A stretch of DNA of 64,000 nt from an uncultured Chloroflexia bacterium (GCA_963768655.1 CAVYIM010000004.1:64001-128000), one strand, 5' to 3'; shown: positions 5,152-21,549, counted from the stretch's first letter. Notes: generated by a model from the letters alone, not told the origin. Translations and numbers: made by a program.

Positions 5152-5268
5152 CTGGCTATCTCCTCCGGGTCCTCGATCTGCGGGTCACAAGATACCTCCT
5201 GCGGGCCCACCAGCGATAACCGCGGGGATTCGCCTATCCTCCCGCCCCGGCTCCGCTACGCTGCCACG

Positions 5269-6528
5269 ATGCGCCGACACGGCCAGCAGGACTGGCGTCT
5301 GCTGCTCAGCCTGTACTGGATCACCTCGTTCGTCGAAGGCTTCGGAGTGGCGCAGGTCTACGCCTTCCTGCCGAATCGACTGGCCGAAGTGGGCATGTCG
5401 ACGCCCGACATCGACCGCTTCGTCGGTGTGCTCGGCGCGCTCTTCTTCCTCACGGGGCTGCCGCTCGTCCCGCTGTGGGGCGTCTGGGCGGACAAGTACA
5501 GCCGCAAGGCGGTAATAATCCGCAGCGCGCTCGTCGAGGTCGTTGTCTTCGGCGTGGTCGGGGCCAGTCGCGAGCCCTGGCAGCTCGTCATCGGGGTCCT
5601 GCTCGTTGCCTTCCAGCTGGGCAACAGCGGCGTGATGATGGCGGCCATCCGCGACGTCACGCCTACGCACCGGCTGGGCCTGGCCATGGGCGTCTTCGCG
5701 GCCAGCAGCCCGCTCGGCTTCGGAGTGGGCCCGGCGGTCGGGTCGGTCATGATCGACCAGCTGCACCTGGCCAGCGGCAACGTCTTTGCCGTCGCGGCGA
5801 TCCTCTCGGCGGCGGTGGCGCTGATGCTGGCCGTCGGATCGGCCGAGGTCCGGCCCGAAGTCGTCCCTCAGGGAAGCGTTCTGAGGTTGGCCTTCGGAGC
5901 CGTGCGGGGCGTGCTGTCGGACCGGACCGTGCGGTGGCTGTTCACCATCTACGGGATCGCCTTTCTGGGCCGCCAGATGTCGACGCAGTACCTGGCCCTG
6001 CTCGTGCACGACGTTGAGCACACCCCACTGGACGTGGCCGGCTCGATAGGGCTGGTGCTCGGCCTGGCCACGATCGTGGGCGCCTCTCTGTCGCCTCTGG
6101 GCGGCTGGGTCGCCGATCGCGCCGGCTTCCGGACGGTGATGGTGGTTTCGATGGGCGGCCTGGCAGTCGCCTTCGCGGCCCTGCCGCTCGCCCCCTCGGC
6201 GGCCTGGATGGCAGTCGCGTACGGCCTGGCGGTCGCCTTCCAGGCCGTTGTCGGGGCGATGGTATCCGGGATCCTGGCAGTCGAAGTACCGGCCGAGCGC
6301 CGCTCGGCGACGCTCAACCTGGTCTTCCTGCCGCTCTATCTGGGTGGCATCGTGGGACCGGCCCTGGGCTCGGCGGTCGTCGGCTCGGGCCTGCGGTCCG
6401 TCTTCTACCTGGCGGCCGTTGTCCTCCTGGGAGGCCTGATCGTCGCGATCGTCTTTGCGCGTCGAACGAGCGGCGCCCACAGGGTGCCGCTCGCGGGAGT
6501 CGCCGAGGGCGCCGAACCGGCCGATTGA
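5269..6528 (+). CDS. MFS transporter (DHA1-like)
   Basis: About 12 hydrophobic segments; motif A WGVWADKYSRK and GWVADRAGFR. Confidence 0.9.
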   Translation: MRRHGQQDWRLLLSLYWITSFVEGFGVAQVYAFLPNRLAEVGMSTPDIDRFVGVLGALFFLTGLPLVPLWGVWADKYSRKAVIIRSALVEVVVFGVVGASREPWQLVIGVLLVAFQLGNSGVMMAAIRDVTPTHRLGLAMGVFAASSPLGFGVGPAVGSVMIDQLHLASGNVFAVAAILSAAVALMLAVGSAEVRPEVVPQGSVLRLAFGAVRGVLSDRTVRWLFTIYGIAFLGRQMSTQYLALLVHDVEHTPLDVAGSIGLVLGLATIVGASLSPLGGWVADRAGFRTVMVVSMGGLAVAFAALPLAPSAAWMAVAYGLAVAFQAVVGAMVSGILAVEVPAERRSATLNLVFLPLYLGGIVGPALGSAVVGSGLRSVFYLAAVVLLGGLIVAIVFARRTSGAHRVPLAGVAEGAEPAD

Positions 6529-6582
6529 CGGCGAACGCTCCCAGCCGGGAGGTCCGGCCGTGGACGCCGCGTCGTCGCGGCT

Positions 6583-7770
6583 CTAGCGACCCAGTGCCGG
6601 GACGTCCATCTCCGCCGGGCCGACGTACCGGGCGTCCGGCCGGATCAGCTTGTCGGCCGAGGCCTGCTCGATGGCGTGGGCGCCCCAGCCGGCCATGCGG
6701 GCCAGGGCGAACGTCGGCGGGAAGAGGTCGGGCGGGAGGCCGACGCCCTGAAGCACCGCGGCGGCGTAGTACTCGACGTTGGTCTTGATGACGCGGTCCG
6801 GCTTCAGCTCGCCGAAGACGCGCAGGACTACGTCTTCCACCTTGACTGCCACGTCGAGCCACTCGGCCATGTCGGCCATGCCCTCGGCCACTTTCCGTAG
6901 GGCTGCGGCGCGGGGGTCGTAGGCGCGGTAGACGCGATGGCCGAAGCCCATGATCCGGTCGCCGCGGGCGATTGCCTCGCGGACCCACTTCTCGGCGTGC
7001 TCGGGGGAGCCGATCTCGTGGAGCTGGCTCACGACCTCGGCCGGGGCGCCGCCGTGGAGCGGGCCCTTCAGGGCGCCGATGGCCCCGCAGATCGCACTCG
7101 CCAAGTCGGAGCGCGTCGAGATGATGACCCGGCAGGTGAATGTGGAGGCGTTCAGGCCGTGCTCCGCCCCGACGATGAAGTACGCGTCCAGGGCACGGGC
7201 GTCGGCAGGATCGGGATCCTTGCCGGTCAGCTGCTGCAGGAAGCCGCCCGCCAGAGAGAGCTTGGGGTTCGGCTTGACCGGCTCGAGGCCGTTGCGCAGG
7301 CGGTGGAAGGCCGCCAGCGCGGAGGGCGCGAACGCGGTGACCTCCCGGGCCTGGTCGACGGTGGGCGGCCAGTGCGGCCGGCGCCACGCGCCCCAGACGG
7401 ATACCGCGGTGCGCAGCGCGTCCATGGGATGGGTGTGGGAAGGCAGCTCGTACAGCGCGCACATGACGGGCTCCGGTACCGGGGCAGGCACCAGGCGCGC
7501 GGACTTGCGCCACTCACCGGTCCAGAGCAGCTCGGCGACGCGGCCGTAGGTGCCCTTCTCGACGAGCTGGCCGATGGGGTAGCCACGGTACAGCAGCCGG
7601 CCATTCGCGCCGTCCACGAGACCGACCGCCGTTTCGGCGGCGATCACGCCTTCGAGGCCCGGTGAGTACGGTCGCTCCGGCTTCGGCGCGGCCTCGGCCG
7701 GCGCCGGCGGCGCTGCCGCCGCGGGCTCGTCCACGATGGGGGCAGCGGGGTTCTGTGGAGTCGTCGTCAT
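6583..7770 (-). CDS. Citrate synthase / 2-methylcitrate synthase family
   Basis: GLEGV, LLYRGY, EHGLNASTF, GPLHGGA, MGFGHRVY, DPR motifs. Confidence 0.93.
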   Translation of the reverse strand: MTTTPQNPAAPIVDEPAAAAPPAPAEAAPKPERPYSPGLEGVIAAETAVGLVDGANGRLLYRGYPIGQLVEKGTYGRVAELLWTGEWRKSARLVPAPVPEPVMCALYELPSHTHPMDALRTAVSVWGAWRRPHWPPTVDQAREVTAFAPSALAAFHRLRNGLEPVKPNPKLSLAGGFLQQLTGKDPDPADARALDAYFIVGAEHGLNASTFTCRVIISTRSDLASAICGAIGALKGPLHGGAPAEVVSQLHEIGSPEHAEKWVREAIARGDRIMGFGHRVYRAYDPRAAALRKVAEGMADMAEWLDVAVKVEDVVLRVFGELKPDRVIKTNVEYYAAAVLQGVGLPPDLFPPTFALARMAGWGAHAIEQASADKLIRPDARYVGPAEMDVPALGR

Positions 7771-7945
7771 CGTGGCCCTCCTTGGGGCTCAGGACCGTCT
7801 CTCGATCTCGGGCCCCGGGGTGGCAGCTCTCCCCGCGGGCGGAATCGTGGCACGCATCCTACCTCTCCAGCGGATACAGGCGTGGGTCGCGTCGAAACTG
7901 TCCCGCCCGATGGGGTAGGCGGCCCGGGACGGCCCCGGAAAGGCG

Positions 7946-8227
7946 CTAGTAGCGCGACCCGCGATGTCCGCGCCGGTCATTACCCTCGAGCGCGTTCAGG
8001 ATGAGGCGGATGACTGTGGCGCCAAGGAAGGCCACCAGGAGAGCCCCGAGGAAGCCGCTGGTGCTGCCCATGTGCAGCTCCTCGGTGGCGAACCAGCCTC
8101 CGAGAAGTCCGCCGAGGATGCCGATCATCGTGTTGCCGAGGCAGCCCTCGGGACCGCCTCCCTTCACGACGGCACTGGAGAGAGCCCCGGCCAGGAAACC
8201 GACGACAATCCAACCGAGGATTTCCAT
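7946..8227 (-). CDS. GlsB/YeaQ/YmgE (transglycosylase-associated) small membrane protein
   Basis: WIVVGFLAGAL...GILGGLLGGW...AFLGA pattern, three TM helices. Confidence 0.85.
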   Translation of the reverse strand: MEILGWIVVGFLAGALSSAVVKGGGPEGCLGNTMIGILGGLLGGWFATEELHMGSTSGFLGALLVAFLGATVIRLILNALEGNDRRGHRGSRY

Positions 8228-8371
8228 GTGGGGCACGTCCGCTCCTCCTGCCTGCGCGAGATCGGGTGGCGCGAGAGCGCCCGACTGCTCGATTCGATGA
8301 TAACGGTGGCCACCGATGGCGCGGGGCCAGAAGCAGGCTCCGGCGGCCCGCGCCTTCGACGGCTGGCGAGC

Positions 8372-8620
8372 CTAGAGGGCGTCCTTCCAGGCCGGCATCG
8401 TCTTCATGTAGGCGATCGCCTTCTCGCGGGCGGCCTGGTAGTCGAGGCCATCCTGGCGCATCGTCCACTGGGTGAAGCGCTCCAGGCGTTCGTCCACGGG
8501 CGGCAAGTCGCCCTCTGGGGCGCAGTGCTTGCAATACGGGATCTCGAGGTTGGCAAGTGCATGGTCCTCTGCGCCGGCGAGCGGCATGCCGCAGGATTCG
8601 CAGCTGGCAACGATCGTCAT
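8372..8620 (-). CDS. Putative zinc-ribbon domain protein
   Basis: CESCGMPL and YCKHC motifs, C-terminal MPAWK; coupled to the MarR gene. Confidence 0.8.
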   Translation of the reverse strand: MTIVASCESCGMPLAGAEDHALANLEIPYCKHCAPEGDLPPVDERLERFTQWTMRQDGLDYQAAREKAIAYMKTMPAWKDAL

Positions 8621-9171
8621 CGGGGCGTCCTTTCGGTCTCGTTCGCGCGCCCGGGGGCGCTCGACTCGGTCGGGGATGAAGCGGCGGCGGCGAGCAGCTC
8701 GAAGCCGCGGACGACGATCGCCCGCTCCGCCGGTGACAGGGTGGCCATCGTTTCGGCGATCAGGTCCGGGGCCAGCACCTCGCCGACCCGGGAGACCACG
8801 TCACGGCCGGCGTCCGTCAGCCAGACCAGCACCCGGCGTTCGTCGCGCTCGTCGCGGATCCGGGCGACGAGCCCTTTCGACTCCAGGCGCGCCAGCAGCT
8901 CGGATGCCGAGTTGCGCCGCAGGCCCATGTGTTCGGCCTGTTCACCTACCGTCAGGGGGCCGCTCGCGGAGAGATGCGCCAGCACTTCCAGCGCGCGCCG
9001 CGTGACGGGTAGATCCGCGCCCCGAACCCGCTGAGCCCAGTGGTACCGCCGATACACCTCCGGAAAGAGGCGGGCTACTCGCCTTGCGGCCTGCTGAGCC
9101 GTGAGCTCGGGAGCGCCGTCCGGGGCGTTAGCCTGAGCTGGGTTCTGGCTGGATCTGTTCGTGGCGACCAT
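8617..9171 (-). CDS. MarR family transcriptional regulator
   Basis: wHTH: RLESKGLVAR...DERRVLVWLTDAGR. Confidence 0.9.
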   Translation of the reverse strand: MVATNRSSQNPAQANAPDGAPELTAQQAARRVARLFPEVYRRYHWAQRVRGADLPVTRRALEVLAHLSASGPLTVGEQAEHMGLRRNSASELLARLESKGLVARIRDERDERRVLVWLTDAGRDVVSRVGEVLAPDLIAETMATLSPAERAIVVRGFELLAAAASSPTESSAPGRANETERTPR

Positions 9172-9247
9172 GTCGCTGCGACTATCGGCCGGGCCGTTGC
9201 GGGCGTCAACGGATCTGATCGGTCGCTACGACATATTGCGTCGACGG

Positions 9248-9952
9248 CTAGCTCGAAGGCGTCGGGCCGGGCGTCTCGTCCGGGACCTCGATGCTGACGA
9301 GGAAGGACGTGTAGGCCAGGCTCGATGGACCCCGGATCACTTCGGCGAACACGTTTTGGAACGCTCCGCTCTGAGCAGTCAGCTCGACACGGCCCCCATG
9401 CTCGTCCGTGGCGCAATGGAACGTCGCGCCCTGAACGGCCTGAGCGAACGGCACGCTCGTTCCCGGATCGGTGCTGGCCAGCACGACGAGATCGTCGGGC
9501 CCGCTGCACACCACGTGAATGGCGATTTGGGGCGCCGGTGGCAGGAGGTTGCCCCCGACCGAGCCCCCGGCTGGGCCACCATCCCCAAAAGATTCCTGGA
9601 ATTTCCAGCCGGCCGGGGCGCTTGGAGCCGTCGGCATCGGAGTGGGCTCCGCACTCGGGCCGCTTCCGGTTCCGATGTTTCGCGGCAGAAACACGAGCGT
9701 GAACGCGCCCGCCGCGACCACGATGACCGCTGCCAGAGATACGCCGACCCTGCCTGCTCGCCCCAGCGATCGCCAGGCCGCGTTCGCCCGGCTGGTTCGA
9801 GATTCGGTCGGCGTCGTCATCGGAAGCTCCCTCACGTACGAATACAGAGTCTGCGGCGCCCCGGGCGTAAGGCGGTCGTCGAAGACGCCCGACAGACGCT
9901 CGTCCAGCTCGGCATCGGATATAGGGCGGTGGGTGCGCCCGAGGGACTTCAT
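9248..9952 (-). CDS. Putative anti-sigma factor (single TM, extracytoplasmic domain)
   Basis: Overlaps the ECF sigma stop (ATGA); cytosolic N-terminus, TM VSLAAVIVVAAGAFTLVFL, Pro linker. Confidence 0.6.
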   Translation of the reverse strand: MKSLGRTHRPISDAELDERLSGVFDDRLTPGAPQTLYSYVRELPMTTPTESRTSRANAAWRSLGRAGRVGVSLAAVIVVAAGAFTLVFLPRNIGTGSGPSAEPTPMPTAPSAPAGWKFQESFGDGGPAGGSVGGNLLPPAPQIAIHVVCSGPDDLVVLASTDPGTSVPFAQAVQGATFHCATDEHGGRVELTAQSGAFQNVFAEVIRGPSSLAYTSFLVSIEVPDETPGPTPSS

Positions 9953-10521
9953 CGCTCGATCTCCCGGCGCAGCAGACGCTGCGCGTAGTGCAGCCTCGAC
10001 TTCACCGTGCCCACGGGCAGGTCCAGGTGAGTCGCGATCTGCTCCAGAGGCATATCTCGCCAGTAACGGAAGACGATCACCACGCGCTGCTCCGGAGACA
10101 GACAGGCAAGTGCCCGGCCGACCGCATCCCGATTTAGGGTGGCTCGAAATGGGTCGGCCGTGGCGACGCCCAATTCGTCGTCGAGAACCAGCAATCGAAC
10201 CCGACGGCGCGCCTGGATGCTGTTACGACACACGTTGACCACGATGCGGTCCAGCCAGGCGCCGAAGCTGTCCGTGTCGCGCAGCTTCGGCCAGGCCTGC
10301 CATGCTCGAACGAGTGCCTCCTGGACGGCGTCCTCGGCCTCGCCTCGGTCGCCCAGCAGATAGCCCGCCAGCTTGTAGGCACCGTCGAGGTGGCGAGTCG
10401 CGAGCCGGGCCCACTCGACGCCGAGCTCTGTAGCATCGGGTGCGGACGCAGATGCAGACGCGTTCGCTCTCTGCGCCATCATCGCCTCCGCTGAGGTGTG
10501 TCCAACTGCGGCTTTCTCCAT
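9949..10521 (-). CDS. ECF sigma-70 family RNA polymerase sigma factor
   Basis: AEDAVQEAL, FGAWLDRIVVN (region 2); IATHLDLPVGTVKSRLHYA (region 4). Confidence 0.92.
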   Translation of the reverse strand: MEKAAVGHTSAEAMMAQRANASASASAPDATELGVEWARLATRHLDGAYKLAGYLLGDRGEAEDAVQEALVRAWQAWPKLRDTDSFGAWLDRIVVNVCRNSIQARRRVRLLVLDDELGVATADPFRATLNRDAVGRALACLSPEQRVVIVFRYWRDMPLEQIATHLDLPVGTVKSRLHYAQRLLRREIER

Positions 10522-10805
10522 GCCCCATCCAGACCGCCCGTCTAGGCCGAAGGTTCATTGTGGCGGCCCGAGACTTGATTCGTAGGCCGCCTTCAGGCTC
10601 GGAGGCAGACGGTGGCACTGCCAGACCGAAGTTCTCTCGCCGGCTGCGCCGGGCCGTGTAGGGCCGATCGGCTGTGCCGCCCGGCAGAACGACCGCCGCC
10701 GGACCTGGCACGCAACCCCGACCCGGAGCATATTGCTCCCCGAATGGGTGGTCCGGATGGCGCCAGCCGGCCTCCGGCATCACCCCCAACAGCCTGGAGG
10801 CGCGA

Positions 10806-12254
10806 ATGTATCCTCGCCGCCGCTGGGCCGTCGTCTTCGGGGCGATCCTGCTCGTCGGGGTCGTGGAGGCGCTCAGCGACTCGCTGCTCGACGCGGTCTT
10901 GCCCTTCCCGTTCGACACCCTCGTCGTCCTGACGGTCGTGGCGGCCGTGGCGATCGTCGCCGCCTGGTACGCGTTCCGGATCATCGACCGCCTGACGAGC
11001 GACCTAATCCACAGACATCAGGCGCTCAAGTTACGCAATGCCGCCTTGCGGGCCGTATACAACGTCAGTCTCGCGGTTGCCGGGCAGGCCGACCCGGACG
11101 AGACTCTGGCCGCCATCGTCGACCACGCCAGGCACCTGCTCCGGGTCGACGCCGCCCTGCTGGCCCTGGAGGGCCCGGAGGACGAGGTTCGCTTGCGCGC
11201 CTCCAGCGCCTCGCCGGGCGTGCTGATCGACGGGGCCGGCAGGCAGACCGTCGGGGCGCGGCGCGCAGCGAGGGTCGCTCCCAACGGCGGCTCGGGCAGC
11301 GACCTGTCTCGATACCTAGCGCCCGGGTACTCCATCAGGCTTGAGATGCCGGTGGGTCACGGCGAGGCGCGTGTCGGCTCCATAGGGCTGGCCACGGCAC
11401 TGCCGCGCCGTTTCTCCAGCGCGGATCTGGAGACGCTCTCGGCGCTGGCCACCCAGGTGGGACTGGCGCTCGAGGCGGCCCGCCTCCGCGACGAGCTGCG
11501 CGCGCTGGCCGTCCAGGGCGAGCGCGAGAGGATCGCCCGTGAGATGCACGACGGCATGGCCCAGGTGCTCGGGTACGTCAACACGAAGTCGCAGGCTGTG
11601 GAGGAGCTTCTCGCCGCCGGGCGAGTCGCCGAGGCCGGCAAACAGATGGCCGAGCTGGCGGCCGTGGCGAGATCCCTCTACGTCGACGTGCGTGAGGCGA
11701 TCCTGAGCCTGTCGCCGCCCGTCCTGCCCGAGCGTGGCCTTGCCGCTGCGCTCGAGGAGTACGCGGCGCGATTCGCGGAGTCCTCCAAGATGGCCGTGCG
11801 CTTCAAGGCGACTTCCGATGCCGGCAACCTAGCCCTGGCTCCCGAGGTAGGGGCGGAGATGTTCGGAGTCGCCCGCGAGGCGCTCACCAACATCCGAAAG
11901 CACGCCTACGCACGGCGGGTCACGATCGGCCTGACGGTCGAAGCCGCGGACGTGCTGCTGCGGATCGCCGACGACGGGATCGGCTTCGACGCGGAACGGG
12001 CCGGTTCGGAGCCTGAGAAGTGGCCCCACTTCGGGCTTGCCGGGATGCGAGAGCGAGCCGAGGCGGTCGGTGGTCGAATCGAATGGCGAAGCCGCCCGGG
12101 AGCGGGCTCGACGGTCGAGCTACGCGTCCCGGTTGCTCGAGGTCGCAACGGGGGCGGCTTCCCGCCATCCGGACCGGCTGATGCGGCAATCCGTCTCTCA
12201 GCGGGGCACCAGGCGGTCCAATCGCCCATACCTACCCATTCCGAGGCAGACTGA
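10806..12254 (+). CDS. GAF-domain sensor histidine kinase (HisKA_3, NarX-like)
   Basis: ATG at 10806 after GGAGG; two N-terminal TMs; ERERIAREMHDGMAQ H-box; EALTNIRKHA, DDGIGF, GLAGMRERAE. Confidence 0.92.
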   Translation: MYPRRRWAVVFGAILLVGVVEALSDSLLDAVLPFPFDTLVVLTVVAAVAIVAAWYAFRIIDRLTSDLIHRHQALKLRNAALRAVYNVSLAVAGQADPDETLAAIVDHARHLLRVDAALLALEGPEDEVRLRASSASPGVLIDGAGRQTVGARRAARVAPNGGSGSDLSRYLAPGYSIRLEMPVGHGEARVGSIGLATALPRRFSSADLETLSALATQVGLALEAARLRDELRALAVQGERERIAREMHDGMAQVLGYVNTKSQAVEELLAAGRVAEAGKQMAELAAVARSLYVDVREAILSLSPPVLPERGLAAALEEYAARFAESSKMAVRFKATSDAGNLALAPEVGAEMFGVAREALTNIRKHAYARRVTIGLTVEAADVLLRIADDGIGFDAERAGSEPEKWPHFGLAGMRERAEAVGGRIEWRSRPGAGSTVELRVPVARGRNGGGFPPSGPADAAIRLSAGHQAVQSPIPTHSEAD

Positions 12255-12258
12255 GTCC

Positions 12259-12954
12259 ATGCGAACACTGCTGGTGGACGATCACGCGCTATTCCGCGAT
12301 GGTGTGGCGTCGCTCCTGCTCGCCTGGGGCCACGAGGTGGTGGGGCAGGCCTCCGACGGCGAACAGGCGATCGAGCTCGTGGAATCGACCGCGCCTGACG
12401 TCGTCCTGATGGATGTCCGGATGCCCAAAGTCTCGGGCCTGGAGGCGACGGCGGAGATCAAGGCGCGCCATCCGGAAGTTGCCATCGTGATGCTCACGGT
12501 CAGTGAGGAAGAGGCCGATCTCTTCCGCGCCATCAAGGCCGGCGCCCAGGGCTACCTGCTCAAGAACCTCGAAGCGCCCCAGCTCCGCTCGATGCTGGAG
12601 GGCGTTGCCCGCGGCGAGCCGGCGATCACGCCGGGTACGGCCGCGCGCATCATCGACGAGTTCCTCCTCTCACCCGGCGGCGGCGCCGCTTCCCGATCCC
12701 AACGGCTCACCGAGCGTGAGCTTGGCGTGCTGCGCCTGGTTACCGAGGGCCTGCGTAACCGCGAGATCGCAGCCGAGCTCGGAATCAGCGAGAACACCGT
12801 GAAGTTCCATCTGAAGAACATCGTCGAGAAGCTGCACGCCCAGAACCGGGCCGAGCTCGCGGCCCGAGCCGTCCGCGAGGGCCTCGTGCCGGAGACGTAC
12901 CGGCACGACGGCGTTGGAGGCGCTCGCCGCGACGGGCCGTTCCGCCGCCGCTGA
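12259..12954 (+). CDS. NarL/LuxR family response regulator
   Basis: LVDDHALFR, LMDVRMP, GYLLK; LTERELGVL...NREIA...TVKFH HTH. Confidence 0.95.
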   Translation: MRTLLVDDHALFRDGVASLLLAWGHEVVGQASDGEQAIELVESTAPDVVLMDVRMPKVSGLEATAEIKARHPEVAIVMLTVSEEEADLFRAIKAGAQGYLLKNLEAPQLRSMLEGVARGEPAITPGTAARIIDEFLLSPGGGAASRSQRLTERELGVLRLVTEGLRNREIAAELGISENTVKFHLKNIVEKLHAQNRAELAARAVREGLVPETYRHDGVGGARRDGPFRRR

Positions 12955-13103
12955 GCCGCGCCATCTCGCGCTGAGCCGCGCCATCTCGCGCTGAGCCGCG
13001 CCACCTCGCCCTGCCGCGCCCCGCGCTGAGCCGCGCCTCGCCCTGCCGCGCCCCGCGCTGAGCCGCGCCTCGCCCTGCCGCGCCATCTCGCGCTGAGCCG
13101 CGC
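12950..13103. repeat. Tandem repeat array, six copies of core GCTGAGCCGCGCC
   Basis: Two exact 20-bp units gctgagccgcgccatctcgc, then 32-35-bp variant units; starts at the regulator's stop codon. Confidence 0.85.
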
Positions 13104-13223
13104 CGCCCACGTCGGGCGATGCGCCCACCCGCCCGGGTAGCACAACTCCGGCCCTCCGGCAGATGCGGACGCGCCTGGCGCCCGCGACCATTCGGTCGAG
13201 AAAGCATATGGCCGAGGCGTCCA

Positions 13224-15245
13224 ATGGGTTATCGGATCCAGATCGAAAACGGCAACTGCCTGAACTGCGGCGTCTGCATGGACGTCTGCCCGGTTCAGGC
13301 GCTGGACATGAGCCGCCCGCAGCGGCCCGGGGTCGAAGGCGCCGGCATCTTCGGGCGGCCCTTCGACTGGATGATGGAGTACCCGGTCCAGGTCGGAGAG
13401 TGCGTCGGCTGCGGCATCTGCGTGCGCGAATGCCCAACCCACGTCGTGATGCTCGACACTGTCGCCGGTCCGACGCCGCTCGCCGCTCGCCAGGGCCCGG
13501 TTTCGCGGCCCGTCGAGGCGGCGCCCGCATGGCAGCCGCTGGGTGACGTAACGCGCGAATCGCTCAAGCCGGCCCGCGTGTCGCCATGGGGCGATCTCTT
13601 CCAGTGGCGGACCAGCGAGCGACCGAACGACTGGCAGGTCTGGCGGTCGATGGTCACCGAGAGCCGCCGGGATCCCATTTCGCCGTGCCAGGAAGCCTGC
13701 CCGGCCGGGACGGACGCAGGTCGTTACGTCGGCCTGATCGCCCAGGGCCGCTACGACGAGGCCTATGCGGTCGCGGCCGAGGTGAACCCCTTCCCGTCGG
13801 TCTGCGGCTGGATCTGCACCGCTCCGTGCGAGGCTGTGTGCCGGCGCGGCACCCTGGACGAACCGATCGCGATCCGCCGTCTCAAGCGATTCGCGACCGA
13901 GCAGGGCAAGCTGCCGCCCGTGGCCCCGCCCGCGAACAAGCGCTCGAAGAAGGTCGCGATCGTGGGCGGCGGGCCGGCCGGAATGTCGGCCGCCTACTAC
14001 CTCGCCCGTCTCGGCTATGGAGTGACGGTCTTCGAAGCGATGCCGGTGCCGGGCGGCATGATGGCCATCGGCATCCCGGAGTACCGCCTGCCGCGCACCG
14101 TGCTGCGGGCGGAGATCGACCGCATCGTCGGCCTCGGCGTGGAGCTCAAGCTCGACAGCGCCATGGGCCGCGACTTCACGCTGGCCGATCTGGAGACGAA
14201 GTACGACGCCATCTTCCTGGCGACGGGCGCATCGCGCAGCCGCAAGCTCGGCGTGCCCGGTGACGGGCTGCCGGGCGTCGTGCCCGCCACGTTCTTCCTC
14301 AAGCAGGTCAACCTCGGTGAGAAGCCGGTCCTGCGCGGCTCGGTCGTGGTCGTCGGCGGCGGTAGCACGGCCATGGACGCGGCTCGCTCGGCGCTCCGTT
14401 CGGGCGCTTCCTCAGTAACGGTCCTCTACCGGCGCGGTCGGGCCGAGATGCCGGCTCAGGCTGAAGAGGTCGAAGCGGCCGAGCATGAGGGCGTGGTCAT
14501 CCAGTTCGAGGCGGCCGTGTCGGAGGTCGTCGGTTCGGCCAAGGGCGTGACGGCCGTCAAGTTCGTCAGCCAGCGCCCCACCGGGAAGTTCGACGGCGGC
14601 CGTGCCGTCTACGAGCCGATCCCCGGCAGCGATCGAGAGAAGTCCGCCACCACGGTGCTGGTGGCGGTGGGCGAGGAGCCCGACCCGTCGATCCTGCCCC
14701 AGGGCGCGGGCATCGAGACCAGCGGCTTCTCCGGCATCGTGGCCGACGCGGGTCAGGCGACGGGTCGCAGGGGCGTCTTCGCCGGCGGCGACGTCGTGTC
14801 GGGCGCCAAGACGATCATCCATGCCGTCGGCGCGGGCCGGCGCGCCGCCGGCTCGATCCACGAGTACCTGTCCGGCAGCCACGACGGCGAAGCCGAGATC
14901 ATGGCCACAGTCCGAGTGCCCAAGGGTCCGGAGCCGGTCCTGACGGTGGACCTGGACGTGCGGCCACGAGTCGGGATGGAGCTGCCCGCGTACGAGCCGG
15001 GATCCTTCACGCCGACTCAACCCAGCCTGGGGGTGGCGGCCGCCGGGAAGGAAGCGACCCGCTGCTTCCGCTGCGACGCCATCTATCGCTGCGAGACGGT
15101 CCACGTCCAGTCCGGCCGGGGCCCGCGGGACGGCCCGCGCGACGGCCCGGGCGATAGTTCGGGGCCAGGCAAGACTCCCCTCATTCAGCCCCCGCTCGCG
15201 GGCCCAGCGAGCAATCCTCCACAGACTCTCGGAGGTCGCGACTGA
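13224..15245 (+). CDS. 2x[4Fe-4S] ferredoxin fused to GltD/NfnB-like FAD/NAD(P)H oxidoreductase
   Basis: CLNCGVCMDVCP and CVGCGICVRECP; PCQEACP...CGWICTAPCEAVC; VGGGPAG; GIPEYRLP; GGGSTAMD; YRRGRAEMPA; EATRCFRC. Confidence 0.88.
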   Translation: MGYRIQIENGNCLNCGVCMDVCPVQALDMSRPQRPGVEGAGIFGRPFDWMMEYPVQVGECVGCGICVRECPTHVVMLDTVAGPTPLAARQGPVSRPVEAAPAWQPLGDVTRESLKPARVSPWGDLFQWRTSERPNDWQVWRSMVTESRRDPISPCQEACPAGTDAGRYVGLIAQGRYDEAYAVAAEVNPFPSVCGWICTAPCEAVCRRGTLDEPIAIRRLKRFATEQGKLPPVAPPANKRSKKVAIVGGGPAGMSAAYYLARLGYGVTVFEAMPVPGGMMAIGIPEYRLPRTVLRAEIDRIVGLGVELKLDSAMGRDFTLADLETKYDAIFLATGASRSRKLGVPGDGLPGVVPATFFLKQVNLGEKPVLRGSVVVVGGGSTAMDAARSALRSGASSVTVLYRRGRAEMPAQAEEVEAAEHEGVVIQFEAAVSEVVGSAKGVTAVKFVSQRPTGKFDGGRAVYEPIPGSDREKSATTVLVAVGEEPDPSILPQGAGIETSGFSGIVADAGQATGRRGVFAGGDVVSGAKTIIHAVGAGRRAAGSIHEYLSGSHDGEAEIMATVRVPKGPEPVLTVDLDVRPRVGMELPAYEPGSFTPTQPSLGVAAAGKEATRCFRCDAIYRCETVHVQSGRGPRDGPRDGPGDSSGPGKTPLIQPPLAGPASNPPQTLGGRD

Positions 15246-15886
15246 TGGACTCACCGGCGTTCGGTGCAGCCGAGCAATTCGTCGAAGGGACGATAGCCGC
15301 TGCGCTCGTGGCCCTGTGGCTGCTGGCTGTCGCCCTGCATCTGGCCAGGCCGTACATGCTCGCCCTGACGCGAAAGTTCACGCTCCGGCTCGGAGCCGAT
15401 CTGTGGTGGACCATCTACGTCGGGATGCGGGACATCTTCCTGCTGCAGGTCTTCCTGGGCAGCTTCATCTTCTTGTACCCCGACGTCGTCAAAGCCAACG
15501 ACCTGCCGATCACGGGCGGGCTGGCCGGCGCCTGTGCCTTCGCCGCCCTCCTGCTCAAGCTGATGACCAGGGCGGATGCCGACTCGCGAAGCTTCTACGC
15601 GCAGACCGTGTTGATCGCGCTTGGAGCCTCCCTCTACCTGGGTGCCTACTTGCTCGGCAGCCAGATGACGACCGTCGGCAGCAGCATCTCGAACCAGCTG
15701 GCCTCGATCCTGGTGAGCTCGCAGAACCAGACGATCGCGCTGGCGCTGTGCTATCTGTCGGCGCTCCTAATCGGGATCATGGGAATCGTGGCCGTCGTCT
15801 ACAACCTCCGCCTTGCCTCACCAGCCCCGCGCAAGGCCGATGCCGTCGCTGCCAGCCAGCCCGCGGCCAAGAACCAGGAGAGATAA
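15245..15886 (+). CDS. Unknown polytopic membrane protein (paralog A)
   Basis: TGATG coupling to the oxidoreductase; about five TM helices; LHLARPY...TLRLGADLWW...RD. Confidence 0.8.
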   Translation: MDSPAFGAAEQFVEGTIAAALVALWLLAVALHLARPYMLALTRKFTLRLGADLWWTIYVGMRDIFLLQVFLGSFIFLYPDVVKANDLPITGGLAGACAFAALLLKLMTRADADSRSFYAQTVLIALGASLYLGAYLLGSQMTTVGSSISNQLASILVSSQNQTIALALCYLSALLIGIMGIVAVVYNLRLASPAPRKADAVAASQPAAKNQER

Positions 15887-15888
15887 CG

Positions 15889-16523
15889 ATGTCGCCCGAC
15901 CAGCAGACTCAGGCACTCGTTCAGGGCACGCAGTACTGGCTGATCCTCTCTGTCGCGGCCATTCTGCCCATCCTGTGGGCCTTCACTCTTGCGCTCCACT
16001 TCGCCAGGCCGTACGTCATCCGCTACCTGCAGACGCTGACTCTGCGGTTCGGCGGCGACGTGTGGTGGCTCAGCTACGTCCTGATGCGAGATGGACTGCT
16101 CGTCGTGACGTTCGCTCTGAGCGCCATCTTCCTCTTCCCGAACGTCTACATGAGCTCCGACCTTCAGGTGCCGATCACGGCGCCGCTCGCCGCGCTGGTG
16201 CTCTTCTGGGCCCTGCTCGCCAAGCTCACCGGCGACTCCGACGACGACGCCCGGACCTTCCGCATCGTCTCGGTGCTGCTGGTCGTCGCCTCGATGCTCT
16301 ACATCATCCCGCAGATCTACGGTGTCGAGGCCGGCGACCAGGTGGACTCGCTGAACGCCATCGCCAACCTGGGGGGATCCCGGGCGCGCTCGTCAGCGGC
16401 GTCAACCCCAGCGTCTCCTACCCGATTCTCAATCTCAGCCTGCTTGGATTTGCCGCTACCGGCGCGGTCATCTTCGGCTGGTTCCTGCGCAAGACGAAGT
16501 TCGAGCCCGCGGATCTCGGGTAG
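15889..16523 (+). CDS. Unknown polytopic membrane protein (paralog B), frameshift in G6 tract at 16371-16376
   Basis: ATG 15889 after AGGAG; LHFARPY...TLRFGGDVWW...RD; C-terminal TM continues in another frame (IPGALVSG...GWFLRKTKFEPADLG*). Confidence 0.75.
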
Positions 16524-16554
16524 GCGGCGGGCATTAGCTAGCCGGCCGCTCGAG

Positions 16555-16590
16555 AAGGACCGCCGCTCTTCGGAGCGGCCGTCCTTACTT
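16555..16590 (+). terminator. Hairpin with cUUCGg tetraloop; probable operon terminator
   Basis: aaggac-cgccgctc-ttcg-gagcggc-cgtcctt followed by actt. Confidence 0.65.
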
Positions 16591-16685
16591 GCGCTCGGAG
16601 CCGCGCTCGGTGGCCCTCCTCGCCCCCGGCTTCCTATTCCGCGGCCGCTGCCGACACCCCTGGCACGTACCAGAGGCAATCGGCC

Positions 16686-16988
16686 ATGAACGTCGAAGCG
16701 ATCGACCCAACGTCCACCGCGACTCCCGCGGCGACGGCCGCGAGCCCGCCGGCGAGGAAGGCGCCACCTGCCCGGCCCGCCGCCCCGCCCGCGGCCCGGC
16801 AGGTCACCGTCGCGGCGCTGACGACTCCGGCGGCGACGGCCACCGTCACTTCAGTGCCTGCGAGCGTGGCGCCCGAAGATCGGGCGCTGTACCTGCAGAT
16901 CCTGAAGTCTCTGGACGGCAACGTGAACGCGGCTCTTGCCACGCTGCAGGCGTTGCAGGCCAAGGATGGTTCCGCGGGTCAGAGCTAG
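16686..16988 (+). CDS. Small hypothetical protein (Ala/Pro/Thr-rich N-terminus, helical C-terminus)
   Basis: ATG after GAGG; 100 aa; GC3-biased codons. Confidence 0.55.
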   Translation: MNVEAIDPTSTATPAATAASPPARKAPPARPAAPPAARQVTVAALTTPAATATVTSVPASVAPEDRALYLQILKSLDGNVNAALATLQALQAKDGSAGQS

Positions 16989-17415
16989 TGTCCCAATTCG
17001 CCGATCACTGAGGGCTTGCGCACCGCCTTGGCCAGGATCTGATCGGCGGTCTTGACCCAGGCGAAGGGCGTAGAGCCCTCGTTCCAGCTGGCCGTGAAGG
17101 CCACGATCATCGCGATGAGTTCCTTGACCGAACGGAAGCTGCCCCGGCGAATAGCCTGACGGGAGAGGATGCCGAACCAGGTCTCGATCTGGTTCATCCA
17201 GGACGCGCTGGTGGGGGTGAAGTGAAAGCTAACTCGCGGATTAGCTTCGAGCCACTCGCGGATGGCCGGCGTCTTGTGGGAGCTGACGTTGTCGAGCACG
17301 ACCGCAAGTTCTCCCTGCGGATAGGCCCGCTCGATCTCGCGCAGGAAGGCCAGGAAGTCGGCAGCCGTGTGGCGAGCCCGCGTCTGAGTGGTCACCTTGC
17401 CAGTGGCGACTTCCC
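16985..17415 (-). mobile_element. IS630-family transposase remnant (3' part only)
   Basis: EVATGKV...VVLDNVSSHK...HFTPTSASWMNQIETWF...RRGSFRSV...PFAW; ends at CTAG; no N-terminal HTH. Confidence 0.88.
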
Positions 17416-17821
17416 GCTGCCGAAACGCTGGGGGTGCTTACCCTCCGCGTCGGGCGGTGCGATCCGCCGCCCTCGCCATGCGGCGGAGCGCAACGGTCGA
17501 CTCGGGCCTTGCCTTCTGGCCCAACTTGCCTGGAGTGAGAGTTAGCCGTCCGGCCGCGACCCTTCAGCGGGCCGTGCGGCGGCGTGGAACCGTCAGAGTG
17601 CAGGAGCCACGCTCGGGCGCGGGCTGGCGAGGTGGTCATTGACCGGTCCGGGCCTGCTCGGAGCGGTCGCGCCGCGACCAGTCACGCTACTGGCTGCTGT
17701 AACTCCCATCCGGGGCAAGTTCGGACCAGATGCCGGGCGTCACGGCCCGGGCCGCCCCCCTCGAGGGGCCTTGACTGACGCCGCGTGCCGCCGCCAGGCG
17801 CCGCGAGACTCTCGCCCGGCG

Positions 17822-18694
17822 CTACCCCCGCAGCCCCGCCGGTATCCGTGCCGCGGCGGCCTCGTCGACGATCCAGGCAGCGCCAGGACGACGGGTTCGC
17901 TGGACCGGCCAGCGGCGATCGTCGCGCACCTCGCCGAAGACGTGGCCCAGGGCCTCGTCCTTGTTCTCGCCCCACGTCACGACCAGCACTGGCGCGGCCT
18001 CGAGAAGGCGCGGATTGAGCGTCACGCGAGGCAGGTGAGGGCCGATGTGCTCGGGAGCCGGCACGCCCATCGCCCAGTCCATCCGGTCCAGCGCGGGGCT
18101 GTCGGGGAAGACCGAGAGAACGTGGCCGTCGTCGCCGACGCCGACCAGGATGAGATCGAAGACGGGCCAGTTGCCGTCCGCGAGGGGGAGGTGGCGCCCC
18201 ATCTCCTCGGCGTAGCGGGCGGCGCACCAGGCGGTGTCGTGGTAGTCCGCGATGGCCCGATCCGTCGGGAAGACGTGGATGTTGGCCGTCGGGAGAGGCG
18301 CGCTGCCGTGCTCGCCCGCCCCGCCCCCCAGAAGCACGTCGTCCAGACTCGTCACGTTGGATTCGGGGTGACCTCGCGGCACGTAGCGGTCGTCGCCCCA
18401 CCAGAAATGGACTTGCTGCCAGGGAATGCGATCGCACAGCGGCAGCTGCGACAACAGCCGGTAGATCGGTATTGGCGTGCTGCCGCCGGTGGTGCAGAAG
18501 TCGGCCCGGCCGCGCCGCTCGACGGCGGCCACGAGCGCCGCGGCGATCCGATCGGCAGCCTCGCGCGCGGCCGCGCCGGCATCGGCCACGACCAGCAGGT
18601 CGGGCTCGCCCTGGTTGGGGGCCGGGAGGCCCGAGGCGCTGGTGCCGGCCAGGCGTTCGGGCGCTCGAAACAGGTCCGGGTCTTGCTCAGTCAT
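17822..18694 (-). CDS. pgl: 6-phosphogluconolactonase
   Basis: TGGSTP, WWGDDRYVP..HPESN, GVGDDGHVLSVFP, RVTL. Confidence 0.9.
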   Translation of the reverse strand: MTEQDPDLFRAPERLAGTSASGLPAPNQGEPDLLVVADAGAAAREAADRIAAALVAAVERRGRADFCTTGGSTPIPIYRLLSQLPLCDRIPWQQVHFWWGDDRYVPRGHPESNVTSLDDVLLGGGAGEHGSAPLPTANIHVFPTDRAIADYHDTAWCAARYAEEMGRHLPLADGNWPVFDLILVGVGDDGHVLSVFPDSPALDRMDWAMGVPAPEHIGPHLPRVTLNPRLLEAAPVLVVTWGENKDEALGHVFGEVRDDRRWPVQRTRRPGAAWIVDEAAAARIPAGLRG

Positions 18695-19881
18695 GGTCCT
18701 GACTCCTGCGCCTTTCCACACCTTTACGCGGCATCGGCTGTGCTGCGATCAGGCGGCCCGCCATCGACAGTGCGTCGGCCGCGACCGAATCGCCGGCGCT
18801 ATCTTCCAACGCCCGTCCGAGCAGGTCTACGTCCCCAAGTCGGGGAGCCAGATACGTTCGTCGGACGCGCTCCCGGCCCTTGTCGTGGATGCTGACCTCC
18901 ACGGTGCGATCTCCGGCCGCAACGTCGCCCACCAGTTCGGCGCCGCGCAGCCGCGAGACGATCTCGACCCGCACGGTCGACCCTTGGCCCAGGTCCGAGC
19001 AGACCGGCCGCCACTCGGCGGCCACCGTGTGATCGCCCTGGCGCAGGGTGGCAACCCTGCGGCCGTCGGGGAGCCTCCGCACCGGCTCGACGACGCTCAT
19101 GCCCAGGCGAGACGCCAGCCAGGCCACGTGATAGACGGGCCGCACGACGTTGGTCAGCGCCGCCGGGTCGCCCTCCTCGGGTGCAGCGAACTCGACCGTG
19201 ATCGACCGAACGGCTCGCAGGTGCGGCCGAAGGTCGGGCAGGTCGTAGACGGAGGCCAGGGCCTCGCGCCAGCGGGCCTGGCGAAGCATTGCGAAGTCGG
19301 CGACGACCAGGCGCCGGGCCTGTGTCACGAGCGCCATCGCGCCAAGACGGTCCAGGCCATCGCCGGACCACGAGGAGCCGTCGACGATGAGTCGATCGGC
19401 GATGGGCAGCAGCCGATCGGCCCGATGTGAGCTGAACTGCGGGTCGCGCGGCCACCACAGCGCCACGGGCAGATCGTGGACGAGCAGGGGAATGATGATC
19501 GAGGCCAGGTGATGGCCCGTCTGGCCGTGCAGGGTCACGTAGATCGTCTCCGCCCAGGCCTGGTCGCACCCCGGTCGCGCTCGCCTCGGCGATCGTCCCG
19601 ATCGTGGCGTCGAGACCGGGCCGGCCCTCCTCGTCGAGCGCGGACAGGATCAGCGACCGCGAGGGATGCCGTCCGGCCGTGGCCTCGACGAGGGCGGCGC
19701 AGCGCTCTGCCGTCTCTCGCCGCCCCGCGACGACGACCAGGTTGAGCACGCTGGAACGAGCGGCGACGTGGTGCTCGCCCTCGCCGCGGTGCGTGGCCTT
19801 GCCCGCCCACGCCTGAGCCAGCGCGCGCTCGATCTCGGGCACGGAGTGCAGGACCTCGGGCGCCTTCAGATTCGGCGCCAT
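18687..19881 (-). CDS. opcA: Glucose-6-phosphate dehydrogenase assembly protein OpcA; frameshift near 19570
   Basis: ARSSVLNLVV...HPSR in one frame, ETIYVTL...PLLVHDLPVALWW...LIVD...WREALA in the next; directly downstream of zwf. Confidence 0.82.
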
Positions 19882-21494
19882 CGGCGCTCGTCCCGGGCCA
19901 TCAGCTCGTCGGCCGCCTCCGGACCCCAGGTTCCGGCCGCGTAGTTGGGGAAGCGTGGCGCCGGCATGGCCGCCCAGCACTCGATGATCGGCGTTACTAC
20001 GGCCCAGGCCGCCTCGACTTCGTCGGCCCGCGTGAAGAGCGACGCGTCGCCGAGCAGGGCGTCGAGGATCAGGGTTTCGTACGCGTCGGGCGAGTCCACG
20101 GCGAAGGACGTCCCGTAGTCGAAGTCCATGTTGACCGTCCGGACGTCCAGACCCAGGCCCGGAACCTTGGCGGCGAAGCGGAGCATGATGCCCTCGTCTG
20201 GCTGGATCCTCATCGCCAGGACGTTGGGTGCCGGATCGCCGGTCGACTCGTGGAAAAGAGGCAGCGGCACTTCCTTGAACTGGATCGCGATCTCCGTCGC
20301 GCGCTCGGGCAGCCTCTTGCCGGCACGCAGGTAGAAGGGCACGCCGCTCCAGCGCCAGTCGTCGATCGTGAAGCGGCCGGCGACGTAGGTCTCCGTCTCC
20401 GATTCGGGGTCCACCTCCGGCTCTTCACGGTAGCCTAGTACGGCCGCGCCCCCGACCCAGCCGGAGCCGTACTGCCCGCGCACCACGTCGCGCCGGACGT
20501 GCTCGACGTTGGGCGTCGTGATCGCCCGCAAGACCGCCAGCTTCTGGTCGCGCAGGGCGTCGGCGTGGAACGAGGAGGGCGGCTCCATGGCCACGAGTGT
20601 CATCAGCTGCAGCAGATGGTTCTGGAGGATGTCACGGCTGGCGCCGGTCTCCTCGTAGAAGCTTCCTCGACCCTCAACGCCGAGCGACTCGGCCACGGTT
20701 ATCTGGACATGGTCCACGTAGCTGCGGTTCCAGACCGGCTCGAAGATGCCGTTGCCGAAGCGAAAGACCAGGAGGTTGCGGACGGTCTCCTTGCCCAGGT
20801 AGTGGTCGATGCGATAGACCTGCGACTCGCGCAGAACCTTGGCCACCTCGTGGTTGAGTCGGCGGGCCGATTCGTAGTCGCGGCCGAACGGCTTCTCCAC
20901 GACCACGCGACGCCAGCCCGAGCCGCGCAATTCGTGGTCGAGCCCGACGCGGCCCAGCTGGCGGATGATCTCCGTCACCTGAGACGGCTGCGTGGCCAGG
21001 TAGAACAGGCGGTTGCCGGCGGTGCCCCGTTCCGCGTCCAGGGCGTCGAGCCGGCCGCTCAGGCGGTCGAAGCCGGCGTCGTCGCCGAAATCGAGCTGCT
21101 GGTAGGTGATCCGCCGGGCCAGCTCGGTCCACGCCGCCTCGTCGAGAGGCTGCACGCGCGAATTCGCCTCCACCGAGGCACGAACCTCGGCCACGAACGC
21201 CTCGTCGGTGTACGGCCGGCGGGCCACTGCGACCAGGCTGAACTCGGCCGGCAGGAGGTTCGTCCGCCACAGCTGGTAGATCGCCGGCATCACCTTGCGA
21301 TGCGCGAGATCGCCTGTGGCGCCGAACAGGACGAAGCTGCACGGATCGGGGACCCGCTCCAGACGGAGCCCCTGCCGGAGCGGATTGAGATCCGCGTCCG
21401 AGCGGTGCCGGCGGCGCGCGGAGGAGGTTGCCTCTCGGAGCTGGCGGGCAGTTCTGGCCGGTGGCGGCGGAACGGGGCCGTGAGTCGTGCTCAT
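19866..21494 (-). CDS. zwf: Glucose-6-phosphate 1-dehydrogenase
   Basis: FGATGDLAHRK, VEKPFG, RIDHYLGKE, DILQNH, RWSGVPFYLRAGK. Confidence 0.97.
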   Translation of the reverse strand: MSTTHGPVPPPPARTARQLREATSSARRRHRSDADLNPLRQGLRLERVPDPCSFVLFGATGDLAHRKVMPAIYQLWRTNLLPAEFSLVAVARRPYTDEAFVAEVRASVEANSRVQPLDEAAWTELARRITYQQLDFGDDAGFDRLSGRLDALDAERGTAGNRLFYLATQPSQVTEIIRQLGRVGLDHELRGSGWRRVVVEKPFGRDYESARRLNHEVAKVLRESQVYRIDHYLGKETVRNLLVFRFGNGIFEPVWNRSYVDHVQITVAESLGVEGRGSFYEETGASRDILQNHLLQLMTLVAMEPPSSFHADALRDQKLAVLRAITTPNVEHVRRDVVRGQYGSGWVGGAAVLGYREEPEVDPESETETYVAGRFTIDDWRWSGVPFYLRAGKRLPERATEIAIQFKEVPLPLFHESTGDPAPNVLAMRIQPDEGIMLRFAAKVPGLGLDVRTVNMDFDYGTSFAVDSPDAYETLILDALLGDASLFTRADEVEAAWAVVTPIIECWAAMPAPRFPNYAAGTWGPEAADELMARDERRWRRI

Positions 21495-21549
21495 CTGTCG
21501 ACGCAATGGCGGCTGGCGGGGCAGCCCGGGCGCGGCCGCGGTCCGGCTG

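Follow-up and report, generated by a model that had tools for sequence, protein, structure and literature searches.

The general design of a flavin site, a chain of iron-sulfur (Fe-S) clusters and a membrane anchor is known. The fumarate reductase of Escherichia coli, FrdABCD, is a complex II with two small heme-less anchors, FrdC and FrdD, and NuoI (TYKY) sits at the membrane interface of complex I. In a 64,000-nucleotide stretch of DNA from a soil member of the Chloroflexota (the window, C4:64001-128000 of the source assembly, G+C content ~ 70%), five genes, all on the plus strand from position 10806 onwards, encode a two-component pair, a 673-amino-acid (aa) Fe-S flavoprotein and two paralogous integral membrane proteins of an unannotated family, here called M1 and M2. 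Comparison with related loci shows that the conserved partnership in this locus is between the M family and the N-terminal dicluster-ferredoxin domain of the flavoprotein, not its NAD(P)H/FAD part, and we tentatively propose that the module passes electrons from NAD(P)H to a lipid-soluble acceptor in the membrane. The source genome is a 3.37-Mb assembly of 9 contigs that is 88.6% complete, and public records of near-identical proteins bear the label Candidatus Limnocylindrales (phylum Chloroflexota).

The likeness to FrdABCD in layout lies in the flavin site, the Fe-S chain and the two small, related, heme-less membrane subunits, and the anchors would here form a quinone site together with the last cluster. 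M1 and M2, however, gave no sequence or fold match to solved chains and have five predicted transmembrane helices per subunit against three, and the flavoprotein of the window is of the GltD/NfnB type, predicted to oxidise NAD(P)H rather than succinate/fumarate, with flavin and Fe-S clusters on one polypeptide. With NfnB, GltD and SudA it shares Fer4_20 and Pyr_redox_2 over residues ~150-560, but ahead of these it has an additional 2x[4Fe-4S] domain that bears a signature tail, and its partner genes encode membrane proteins, with no NfnA, GltB or PreA gene nearby. Quinone-interacting anchors of the NrfD/PsrC type also join an integral membrane subunit free of cofactors to a ferredoxin-like [4Fe-4S] subunit, but M proteins give no match to Pfam NrfD and have five transmembrane helices against eight or more, and the ferredoxin of the window has two clusters, no Tat signal and a predicted cytoplasmic location. 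NuoI is the best named model for the ferredoxin domain, with an insert between the cluster motifs in both, but the window scores far below the cut-off, its tail has no NuoI counterpart and no other complex I genes adjoin it. The literature listings and abstracts searched hold nothing on the M family, the tail-bearing ferredoxin or their pairing, and a term search of PMC13212565 gave 0 mentions of ferredoxin, flavoprotein, glutamate synthase, two-component, quinone or "hypoxi". As far as these listings and abstracts extend, the M family and its pairing with the tail-bearing ferredoxin are undescribed.

Linkage was surveyed with the best 80 loci taken from each collection scan, the genome set consisting of the best 80 genome loci by M. 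The flavoprotein gene lies directly upstream of M1 in all 80 of these genome loci, and two M genes are present in 79, the remaining locus being cut by a contig end. At loci of 58-70% identity, the order kinase-regulator-flavoprotein-M1-M2 is kept and the neighbouring pgl, opcA and zwf genes are lost. The five genes behave as a unit, since their order persists where these neighbours are gone; a functional link to the adjoining pgl-opcA-zwf genes as a source of NADPH was considered and rejected, as the adjacency is lost in the same loci. A phylum-wide draw gave 16 M loci from other Chloroflexota lineages for comparison, 14 of which have a full-length flavoprotein beside a tandem M-M pair, one a ferredoxin-only gene (L100) and one neither (L098); M genes in Chloroflexota nearly always form such a tandem pair. 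Co-occurrence was counted in one draw of 401 genomes, genome-wide sampling being of Chloroflexota only. The M profile matched 38 of the 401 genomes and a profile of the ferredoxin tail alone matched 37, all within the 38 M-positive genomes, with no tail match among the 363 M-negative genomes of this draw. The two presence/absence profiles thus agree in 400/401 genomes, and the matches span 8 family labels; wherever positions were listed, ~2 kb separates the tail match from the M genes. The sole M-positive genome without a tail, G337, has a deletion that joins residue ~84 of the regulator to residue ~246 of the flavoprotein. This deletion (L194, G337:C24; the same record as L070) removes the ferredoxin and Fer4_20 parts and leaves M1 and M2.

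The boundary of the partnership is seen in the most divergent M subfamily, found in a scan of metagenome contigs from which the best 80 loci were taken. Where a single divergent M gene is present, 30 of 32 metagenome loci have a ferredoxin-only gene directly downstream, which matches residues 1 to ~145 of the flavoprotein and no more of it; the other two loci end within ~235 nucleotides (nt) of the M gene. These stand-alone dicluster ferredoxins are 147-169 aa long, and some of the contigs are archaeal by gene content, with PolD DP2 (L117), HTH_10 regulators, V4R and GvpD-like genes. In three loci of bacterial type (L156, L188, L190), a ferredoxin-only gene accompanies two M genes, arranged as Fd-M-M or M-Fd-M (Fd, ferredoxin), and gene order varies by group among Fd-M-M, M-Fd and M-Fd-M (L188, L190). 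Because the archaeal-type loci hold only an M gene and a stand-alone ferredoxin, the conserved core is the M family plus the dicluster-ferredoxin domain, and it is highly probable that the M proteins and this domain work together. The earlier note on this DNA had proposed a membrane redox unit made of the flavoprotein and both membrane proteins; a conserved flavoprotein/M unit is indeed seen, in 80/80 genome loci and 14/16 loci of other lineages in the neighbourhood survey that the note had asked for, but its core proved narrower than the note supposed.

The flavoprotein (13224..15245, plus strand) comprises the 2x[4Fe-4S] ferredoxin domain, Fer4_20, FAD and NAD(P)H Rossmann domains and a C-terminal part with a short Cys-bearing region followed by a variable Pro/Gly tail. 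Pfam matches are to Pyr_redox_2 (6.5e-37; 128 bits, cut-off 26.1), Fer4_20 (3.1e-16; 59.6 bits, cut-off 25.8) and, for the N-terminal dicluster, Fer4_7 (2e-10). The succession of Fer4_20 and a Pyr_redox_2 fold binding two dinucleotides places the protein in the GltD/NfnB-type superfamily, of which residues ~150-560 are a typical NAD(P)H flavoprotein. It falls below every NCBIfam cut-off, the best being PRK12771 (465.5 vs 516 bits), with TIGR01316 at 314.9 vs 471.75 bits, and so is a member of the superfamily that lies outside every named NCBIfam subfamily. The closest solved chains are 9n5u_A "NfnA" (6e-106), 9bov_A and 8oh5_C, and 4ylf_B and 5vj7_A/5jca_L NfnI are further solved relatives of residues ~150-560. 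Across 32 orthologues, Cys 12, 15, 18, 22, 60, 63, 66, 70, 155, 159, 194, 198, 202, 206, 614 and 617 are invariant, of which six lie in the Fer4_20 region and the last two belong to an RCxRCD motif near the C-terminus, as are the dinucleotide motifs GGGPAG and GGGSTAMDAARS. The final ~45 residues vary and have no counterpart in other families. A YRR motif past the second Rossmann strand suggests NADPH as the substrate. Neither the genes annotated at 6583-21506 nor those adjoining the flavoprotein in the 13 Chloroflexota loci annotated for neighbours include a GltB, NfnA, SudB or PreA partner, in keeping with the earlier claim that GltB, NfnA and PreA are missing here.

The part of the flavoprotein that co-occurs with the M family is the N-terminal ferredoxin domain, residues 1-150 (13224..13673, plus strand). 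It contains two CxxCxxCxxxCP motifs (C12, C15, C18, C22-P23 and C60, C63, C66, C70-P71), as expected of a 2x[4Fe-4S] ferredoxin, and among 33 aligned domains from bacteria and archaeal-type contigs the 8 cluster Cys are invariant and an insert separates the motifs. Residues ~99-150 (13518-13673, plus strand) form the tail that is the signature of the M-associated ferredoxin; in the same alignment it is conserved over ~50 residues and rich in Trp, Pro and basic residues. All NCBIfam models score below cut-off for this domain, the best being TIGR01971 (NuoI), with 40.5 bits against 113 and a range of 32.6 to 45.4 bits over the domains scored (E 1.7e-10 for the window, down to 5.3e-12 for archaeal-type sequences). 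An AlphaFold2 (AF2) model of the domain alone has pLDDT 91-96 in the core and 48-61 in the tail, and a conserved yet low-confidence tail is what would be expected of a segment that becomes ordered on a partner. Prediction of a complex from the M1 and M2 alignments and ferredoxin residues 1-150, run without controls, gave scores of 0.32, 0.24 and 0.01 against a mark of 0.32, which speaks neither for nor against a complex.

M1 (15245..15886, plus strand) is a 213-aa integral membrane protein, and hydropathy predicts five transmembrane helices in it and in M2. The flavoprotein stop codon (TGA, 15243-15245) overlaps the M1 start codon (ATG, 15245-15247) as TGATG, and the M2 ATG at 15889 follows 2 nt past the M1 TAA. 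M1 and M2 are paralogous and share 43% of their residues across positions 16-142 (E 2.5e-23). At E<=0.01, neither protein matches a Pfam or NCBIfam family except DUF4077, which is sub-threshold (19.2 bits vs 25); when 35 M members were compared with Pfam at E<=1, any one family drew matches from 4 of them at most. The 673-aa ferredoxin-fused flavoprotein coupled by TGATG (15243-15247) to a membrane protein, the paralogy of the membrane proteins and their status as unknowns, now matched by the lack of a curated Pfam or NCBIfam family in profile searches, are all as the earlier note had stated, and its remark that the arrangement was not recognised agrees with the listings and abstracts described above. 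Against PDB sequences, the M profile gave chance-level matches only (E 0.46 and 1.6). The AF2 model of M1 is of high confidence (pLDDT 93.9, pTM 0.87), and with this model Foldseek returned nothing at E<=0.001 (best E 0.28, TM score 0.26) and VIA gave a best Z of 9.6, to designed helical bundles, where the level of the tool for helical proteins is ~13. The closest ESM Atlas clusters consist of hypothetical, unnamed proteins from Chloroflexota, and the closest that do carry a name score no better than chance (0.77-0.78). The family is small: at 50% identity and E<=0.001, 1.84 billion representatives yield 250 clusters.

Conserved M residues include R35, Y37, R48, A51, D52, W55, R62, D63, P79 and an acidic loop. 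Across 35 sequences no His or Cys is invariant, and H32, the sole His of M1, is Q, Y or N in homologues. The conserved transmembrane His pairs of di-heme cytochrome b anchors (NarI, HdrE, SdhC-type) are absent from M proteins, and because they have no conserved His or Cys, it is unlikely from their sequences that they carry heme or Fe-S clusters. Seven M homologues (P0131, P0133, P0135, P0136, P0146, P0152, P0153), which sit on contigs of 2.4-4.5 kb, have a signal peptide and an added N-terminal part, either an Ig-like domain of ~110 residues (P0131, P0133, P0135) or acidic His-rich repeats of HADE type (P0146, P0153). Since these homologues bear an extra N-terminal domain behind a signal peptide and the first loop is basic, an orientation with the N-terminus outside and the C-terminus inside is suggested. 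Fusions of M to ferredoxin or flavoprotein were sought among the best 150 of the 250 matches in the representative search and rejected: the long matches (P0129, P0190, P0248, P0221, P0219, P0250, P0267, P0228, P0121, P0264) were judged to be frameshifted read-throughs of noisy assemblies, with alternating wrong-frame Arg/Pro-rich stretches. A 364-aa open frame in L100 was likewise dismissed as a ferredoxin-M fusion, its two matches lying in different frames by coordinates.

Taken together, these features lead us to propose, tentatively and at somewhat less than an even chance, that the module is a membrane-anchored oxidoreductase from NAD(P)H to a lipid-soluble acceptor (menaquinone) with heme-less M anchors. 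The flavoprotein, M1 and M2 would constitute one membrane-attached electron-transfer module, whose expression in the lineage of the window would be controlled by the kinase/regulator pair. NAD(P)H would reduce the FAD of the flavoprotein, and electrons would then move by way of the cluster pair in Fer4_20 to the pair of [4Fe-4S] clusters in the N-terminal ferredoxin domain, which may dock at the cytoplasmic face of an M1/M2 heterodimer. From there, they would leave the protein where it meets the membrane and pass to a lipid-soluble acceptor, for which menaquinone is the likeliest candidate. This is the simplest outlet because M proteins have no conserved cofactor ligands and the chain ends in the M-associated domain. 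In archaeal-type loci, M would pair with the stand-alone ferredoxin and the electron donor would be encoded elsewhere. Among host quinone genes, menA is over its cut-off and NuoH and cytochrome bd subunit I are present, which makes a menaquinone pool with a high-affinity quinol oxidase plausible; MqnA and COX1 were not found in the 88.6%-complete assembly.

Several observations weigh against this proposal. The genomes compared are related and so not independent, so that the counts given above are descriptive and overstate the number of independent events. The second copy in genome G355 (L098) is an M-M pair with neither ferredoxin nor flavoprotein nearby, and the L174 flavoprotein has neither the inter-cluster insert nor the tail, yet precedes an M-M pair; the tail therefore cannot be the only docking element. 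Linkage to a kinase and regulator does not extend beyond the class Limnocylindria. The signal peptides and the Ig-like or acidic His-rich extracellular domains of some M homologues point to a function at the outer face, which would be superfluous for a cytoplasmic quinone reductase. Finally, the M2 frame is broken in the window, and if that sequence is correct, the module is defective in the source organism.

The outward-facing domains are also an argument for an improbable alternative, in which M1/M2 form a transporter, a channel or an outer-face enzyme that the ferredoxin domain would either gate or supply with electrons, acting for example on a metal or a periplasmic substrate. The predicted outward N-terminus, with its signal peptide and Ig-like domain or His-rich repeats, would fit such a role, as would conserved motifs on the predicted outer loops (P79, P-I-T-G, S-x-x-N-P), and the earlier note had likewise allowed for redox-coupled transport. 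However, the lack of conserved His or Cys leaves no evident cofactor for carrying electrons across the membrane, no likeness to a Pfam transporter appeared even at E<=1 (<=4/35 members per family), and no gene for a substrate-binding protein or ATPase is conserved nearby in the annotated loci. Equally improbable is that M1/M2 are a mere membrane tether, the ferredoxin/flavoprotein exchanging electrons with another membrane enzyme encoded elsewhere. The same co-occurrence data, the absence of cofactor ligands in M and the otherwise variable neighbourhoods fit this explanation, but a passive tether would seem to need less than the many polar residues that are conserved in diverged paralogues from bacteria to archaeal-type loci, and no third conserved membrane partner occurs near the module in the 13 Chloroflexota and 7 divergent annotated loci.

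A role in energy conversion is slightly less probable still. M1 and M2 would then couple ion movement to the passage of electrons between NAD(P)H and either ferredoxin or quinone, a function like that of Rnf or Nqr from unrelated sequence, which could conserve energy or drive the reduction of ferredoxin by NAD(P)H. Electrons falling in potential from NAD(P)H or ferredoxin to menaquinone release enough energy for such coupling; both paralogues have invariant or near-invariant charges in or beside transmembrane helices (R48, D52, R62, D63, K105), and their pairing implies a pseudo-symmetric membrane part with 10 transmembrane helices in all. To judge from hydropathy and the positive-inside rule, however, most of the conserved charges would sit at the cytoplasmic boundary rather than mid-membrane, and in archaeal-type loci there is just a single M gene beside one ferredoxin gene; the fold searches also brought up no known ion-translocating subunit, a missing match being weak evidence. 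Adjacency of unrelated, co-inherited genes without functional meaning is very improbable: although common descent swells the counts, most loci being from one phylum and many from one class, the pairing persists through changes of order, the fusion or separation of the ferredoxin and the loss of all other neighbours, recurs on archaeal-type contigs, agrees in 400/401 genome profiles and includes an M1 start that overlaps the flavoprotein stop.

Returning to the proposed NAD(P)H-to-menaquinone oxidoreductase, a wider form of it is conceivable, if rather doubtful: M and the tail-bearing dicluster ferredoxin would be an unrecognised module of bacteria and archaea that passes low-potential electrons directly to the quinone pool without heme, possibly with ion translocation, and that in Chloroflexota became fused to an NADPH dehydrogenase and in Limnocylindria came under a redox- or oxygen-sensing two-component system. 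If so, it would be a new class of respiratory ferredoxin/NAD(P)H:quinone oxidoreductase common to bacteria and archaea. Soils and peat harbour Limnocylindria and related Chloroflexota in abundance, but no cultured model of them is known, and their NAD(P)H balance and the feeding of their respiratory chains have so far been deduced from known families only; a module built on the unannotated M family, with no fold match and no cofactor ligands, would escape metabolic reconstruction based on pathways. A true quinone reductase here would provide a new point of electron entry to respiratory chains and a function for the archaeal pairs of M and ferredoxin. With three genes, or two in archaeal-type loci, the system is small enough for direct testing by heterologous expression.

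Upstream of the flavoprotein gene lie the sensor histidine kinase (10806..12254, plus strand) and, 4 nt past its stop, a NarL/FixJ-type response regulator (12259..12954, plus strand). The kinase has two predicted N-terminal transmembrane segments (residues 9-27 and 39-57), one GAF domain (2.5e-8), HisKA_3 (2.4e-13) and HATPase_c (2.3e-12) by Pfam, and the regulator combines Response_reg (REC, 9.5e-30) with a GerE helix-turn-helix (5.3e-21). A HisKA_3/HATPase_c kinase encoded together with a REC/GerE regulator belongs to the NarL/FixJ family, and the likeness to NarX/NarL and DosS/DosR extends to a HisKA_3 kinase with a GAF sensor domain. The pair differs in lying below all equivalog cut-offs (best NCBIfam match of the kinase, NarQ, 98.6 bits vs 553; NarL for the regulator, 162 bits vs 250) and in its single GAF and two transmembrane helices, and it is neither NarX-NarL nor DosS-DosR proper, given the low equivalog scores and the one GAF domain found, where NarX has a P-box/HAMP sensor and DosS tandem GAF domains that bind heme. 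Of the 69 loci whose upstream flank exceeds 2.3 kb, 67 have the kinase and regulator there, on the same strand. In the phylum-wide draw they are present in 3/16 loci, all from the class of the window, and hence the two-component link to the module is lineage-specific, within the class Limnocylindria. Thus, the GAF/HisKA_3 kinase and NarL-type regulator do lie directly upstream, as the earlier note had it, and its suggestion that the module has its own regulator holds within Limnocylindria and fails in the other Chloroflexota lineages examined.

An inverted heptamer pair with a 2-nt spacer (CCACCCG-CC-CGGGTAG; 13125..13140, plus strand) lies 84-99 nt before the flavoprotein ATG and is, by its sequence, a candidate binding site for the regulator. 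It occurs once in the window and was matched by 0/100 shuffles, and its columns are at least 80% kept across 20 aligned upstream regions from several genera. This layout resembles that of the "7-2-7" sites of NarL. Five direct copies of a ~19-nt unit (core GCGCTGAGCCGCGCC) are present at 12947-13108 with a spacing of 20-35 nt, starting at the end of the regulator gene and extending into the spacer before the flavoprotein gene; similar units occur in relatives L026, L029 and L035, in varying copy number. A scan for consensus sigma-70 promoters at 10400-17000 found nothing. In the sequencing-run search no run contained the window stretch (best share of words 0.08), and no RNA run was listed.

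The surroundings of the module vary in other Chloroflexota. Among the 13 annotated loci, tandem universal stress protein (Usp) genes are beside it in three (L107, L109, L110), a pyruvate:ferredoxin oxidoreductase (PFOR) with a gene like that of dihydroorotate dehydrogenase (DHODH) in two (L103, L109) and F420H2-dependent quinone reductases in two (L104, L108). These neighbours hint at low-oxygen redox balance, and the Usp and PFOR genes are reminiscent of hypoxia regulons. Genome G355 contains two M-M pairs 14 kb apart with identical downstream genes (L098 and L099; G355:C2:318164-319450 and 332561-333850), one copy with a flavoprotein that is split in two frames and the other without; both lie among genes for a group II intron reverse transcriptase, a transposase and PIN/MazE proteins. 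On the metagenome contig of L174, the flavoprotein is at 5133-6953, and a kinase/regulator pair is divergently upstream.

The second membrane gene does start 2 nt after the first, at 15889, but it is not the single open frame that the earlier note implied, one base of a G run being missing. The 5' part of M2 (15889..16376, plus strand, frame 1) runs to a G6 run (16371..16376, plus strand) and is 99% identical to the intact M2 of L023 and L026; in the DNA alignment, the gap is in the window only, compared with 5/5 close relatives. The 3' part (16377..16523, plus strand, frame 0, stop at 16521-16523) encodes the last transmembrane helix and the C-terminus, and its translation is 80-98% identical to intact M2 C-termini in relatives. 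The frame that opens at 15889 instead reads through to 16689 with non-membrane sequence. Eight same-genus loci were fetched for comparison, and in all 8 M2 is intact as one frame of ~209 aa. A second frameshift is found ~3.2 kb from the M2 break, in opcA (G6PD assembly protein; 18687-19980, minus strand), which is split between two frames near 19570-19580, with residues 1-121 in frame -2 and 118-406 in frame -3; relative L035 has one 413-aa frame. The NuoH match of the genome (G000:C9:111019-112161) is in two overlapping pieces (profile 3-263 and 214-298) and may be another assembly indel, and many public "long" M homologues from the lineage of the window are frameshifted read-throughs. A homopolymer indel of the assembly is likelier than a real mutation in M2, since M2 is intact in relatives, opcA is split, NuoH is in pieces and read-throughs are common in the lineage.

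Past the module is a GC-rich, terminator-like stem-loop with a UUCG loop (16551..16591, plus strand), in agreement with the hairpin seen in the earlier note. The 77-nt stretch folds at -45.4 kcal/mol (z -3.92), and 0/200 shuffles fold as stably. No T-tract follows the hairpin, so that it is not an intrinsic terminator in the strict sense, and a consensus terminator scan omits it; in an organism of 70% G+C, it may nevertheless terminate or stabilise the transcript. Further downstream, between the module and pgl, is a partial DDE_3 (IS630-type) transposase of 136 aa (16985-17395, minus strand) that covers profile positions 55-146 only and has no match in the 8 same-genus loci. On the 3' side of the hairpin, a 100-aa Ala/Pro-rich open frame (16686-16988, plus strand) matches no Pfam or NCBIfam family, and a piece of it, 36-41 residues long, is kept in 2 of the 8 same-genus loci (L011, L016).

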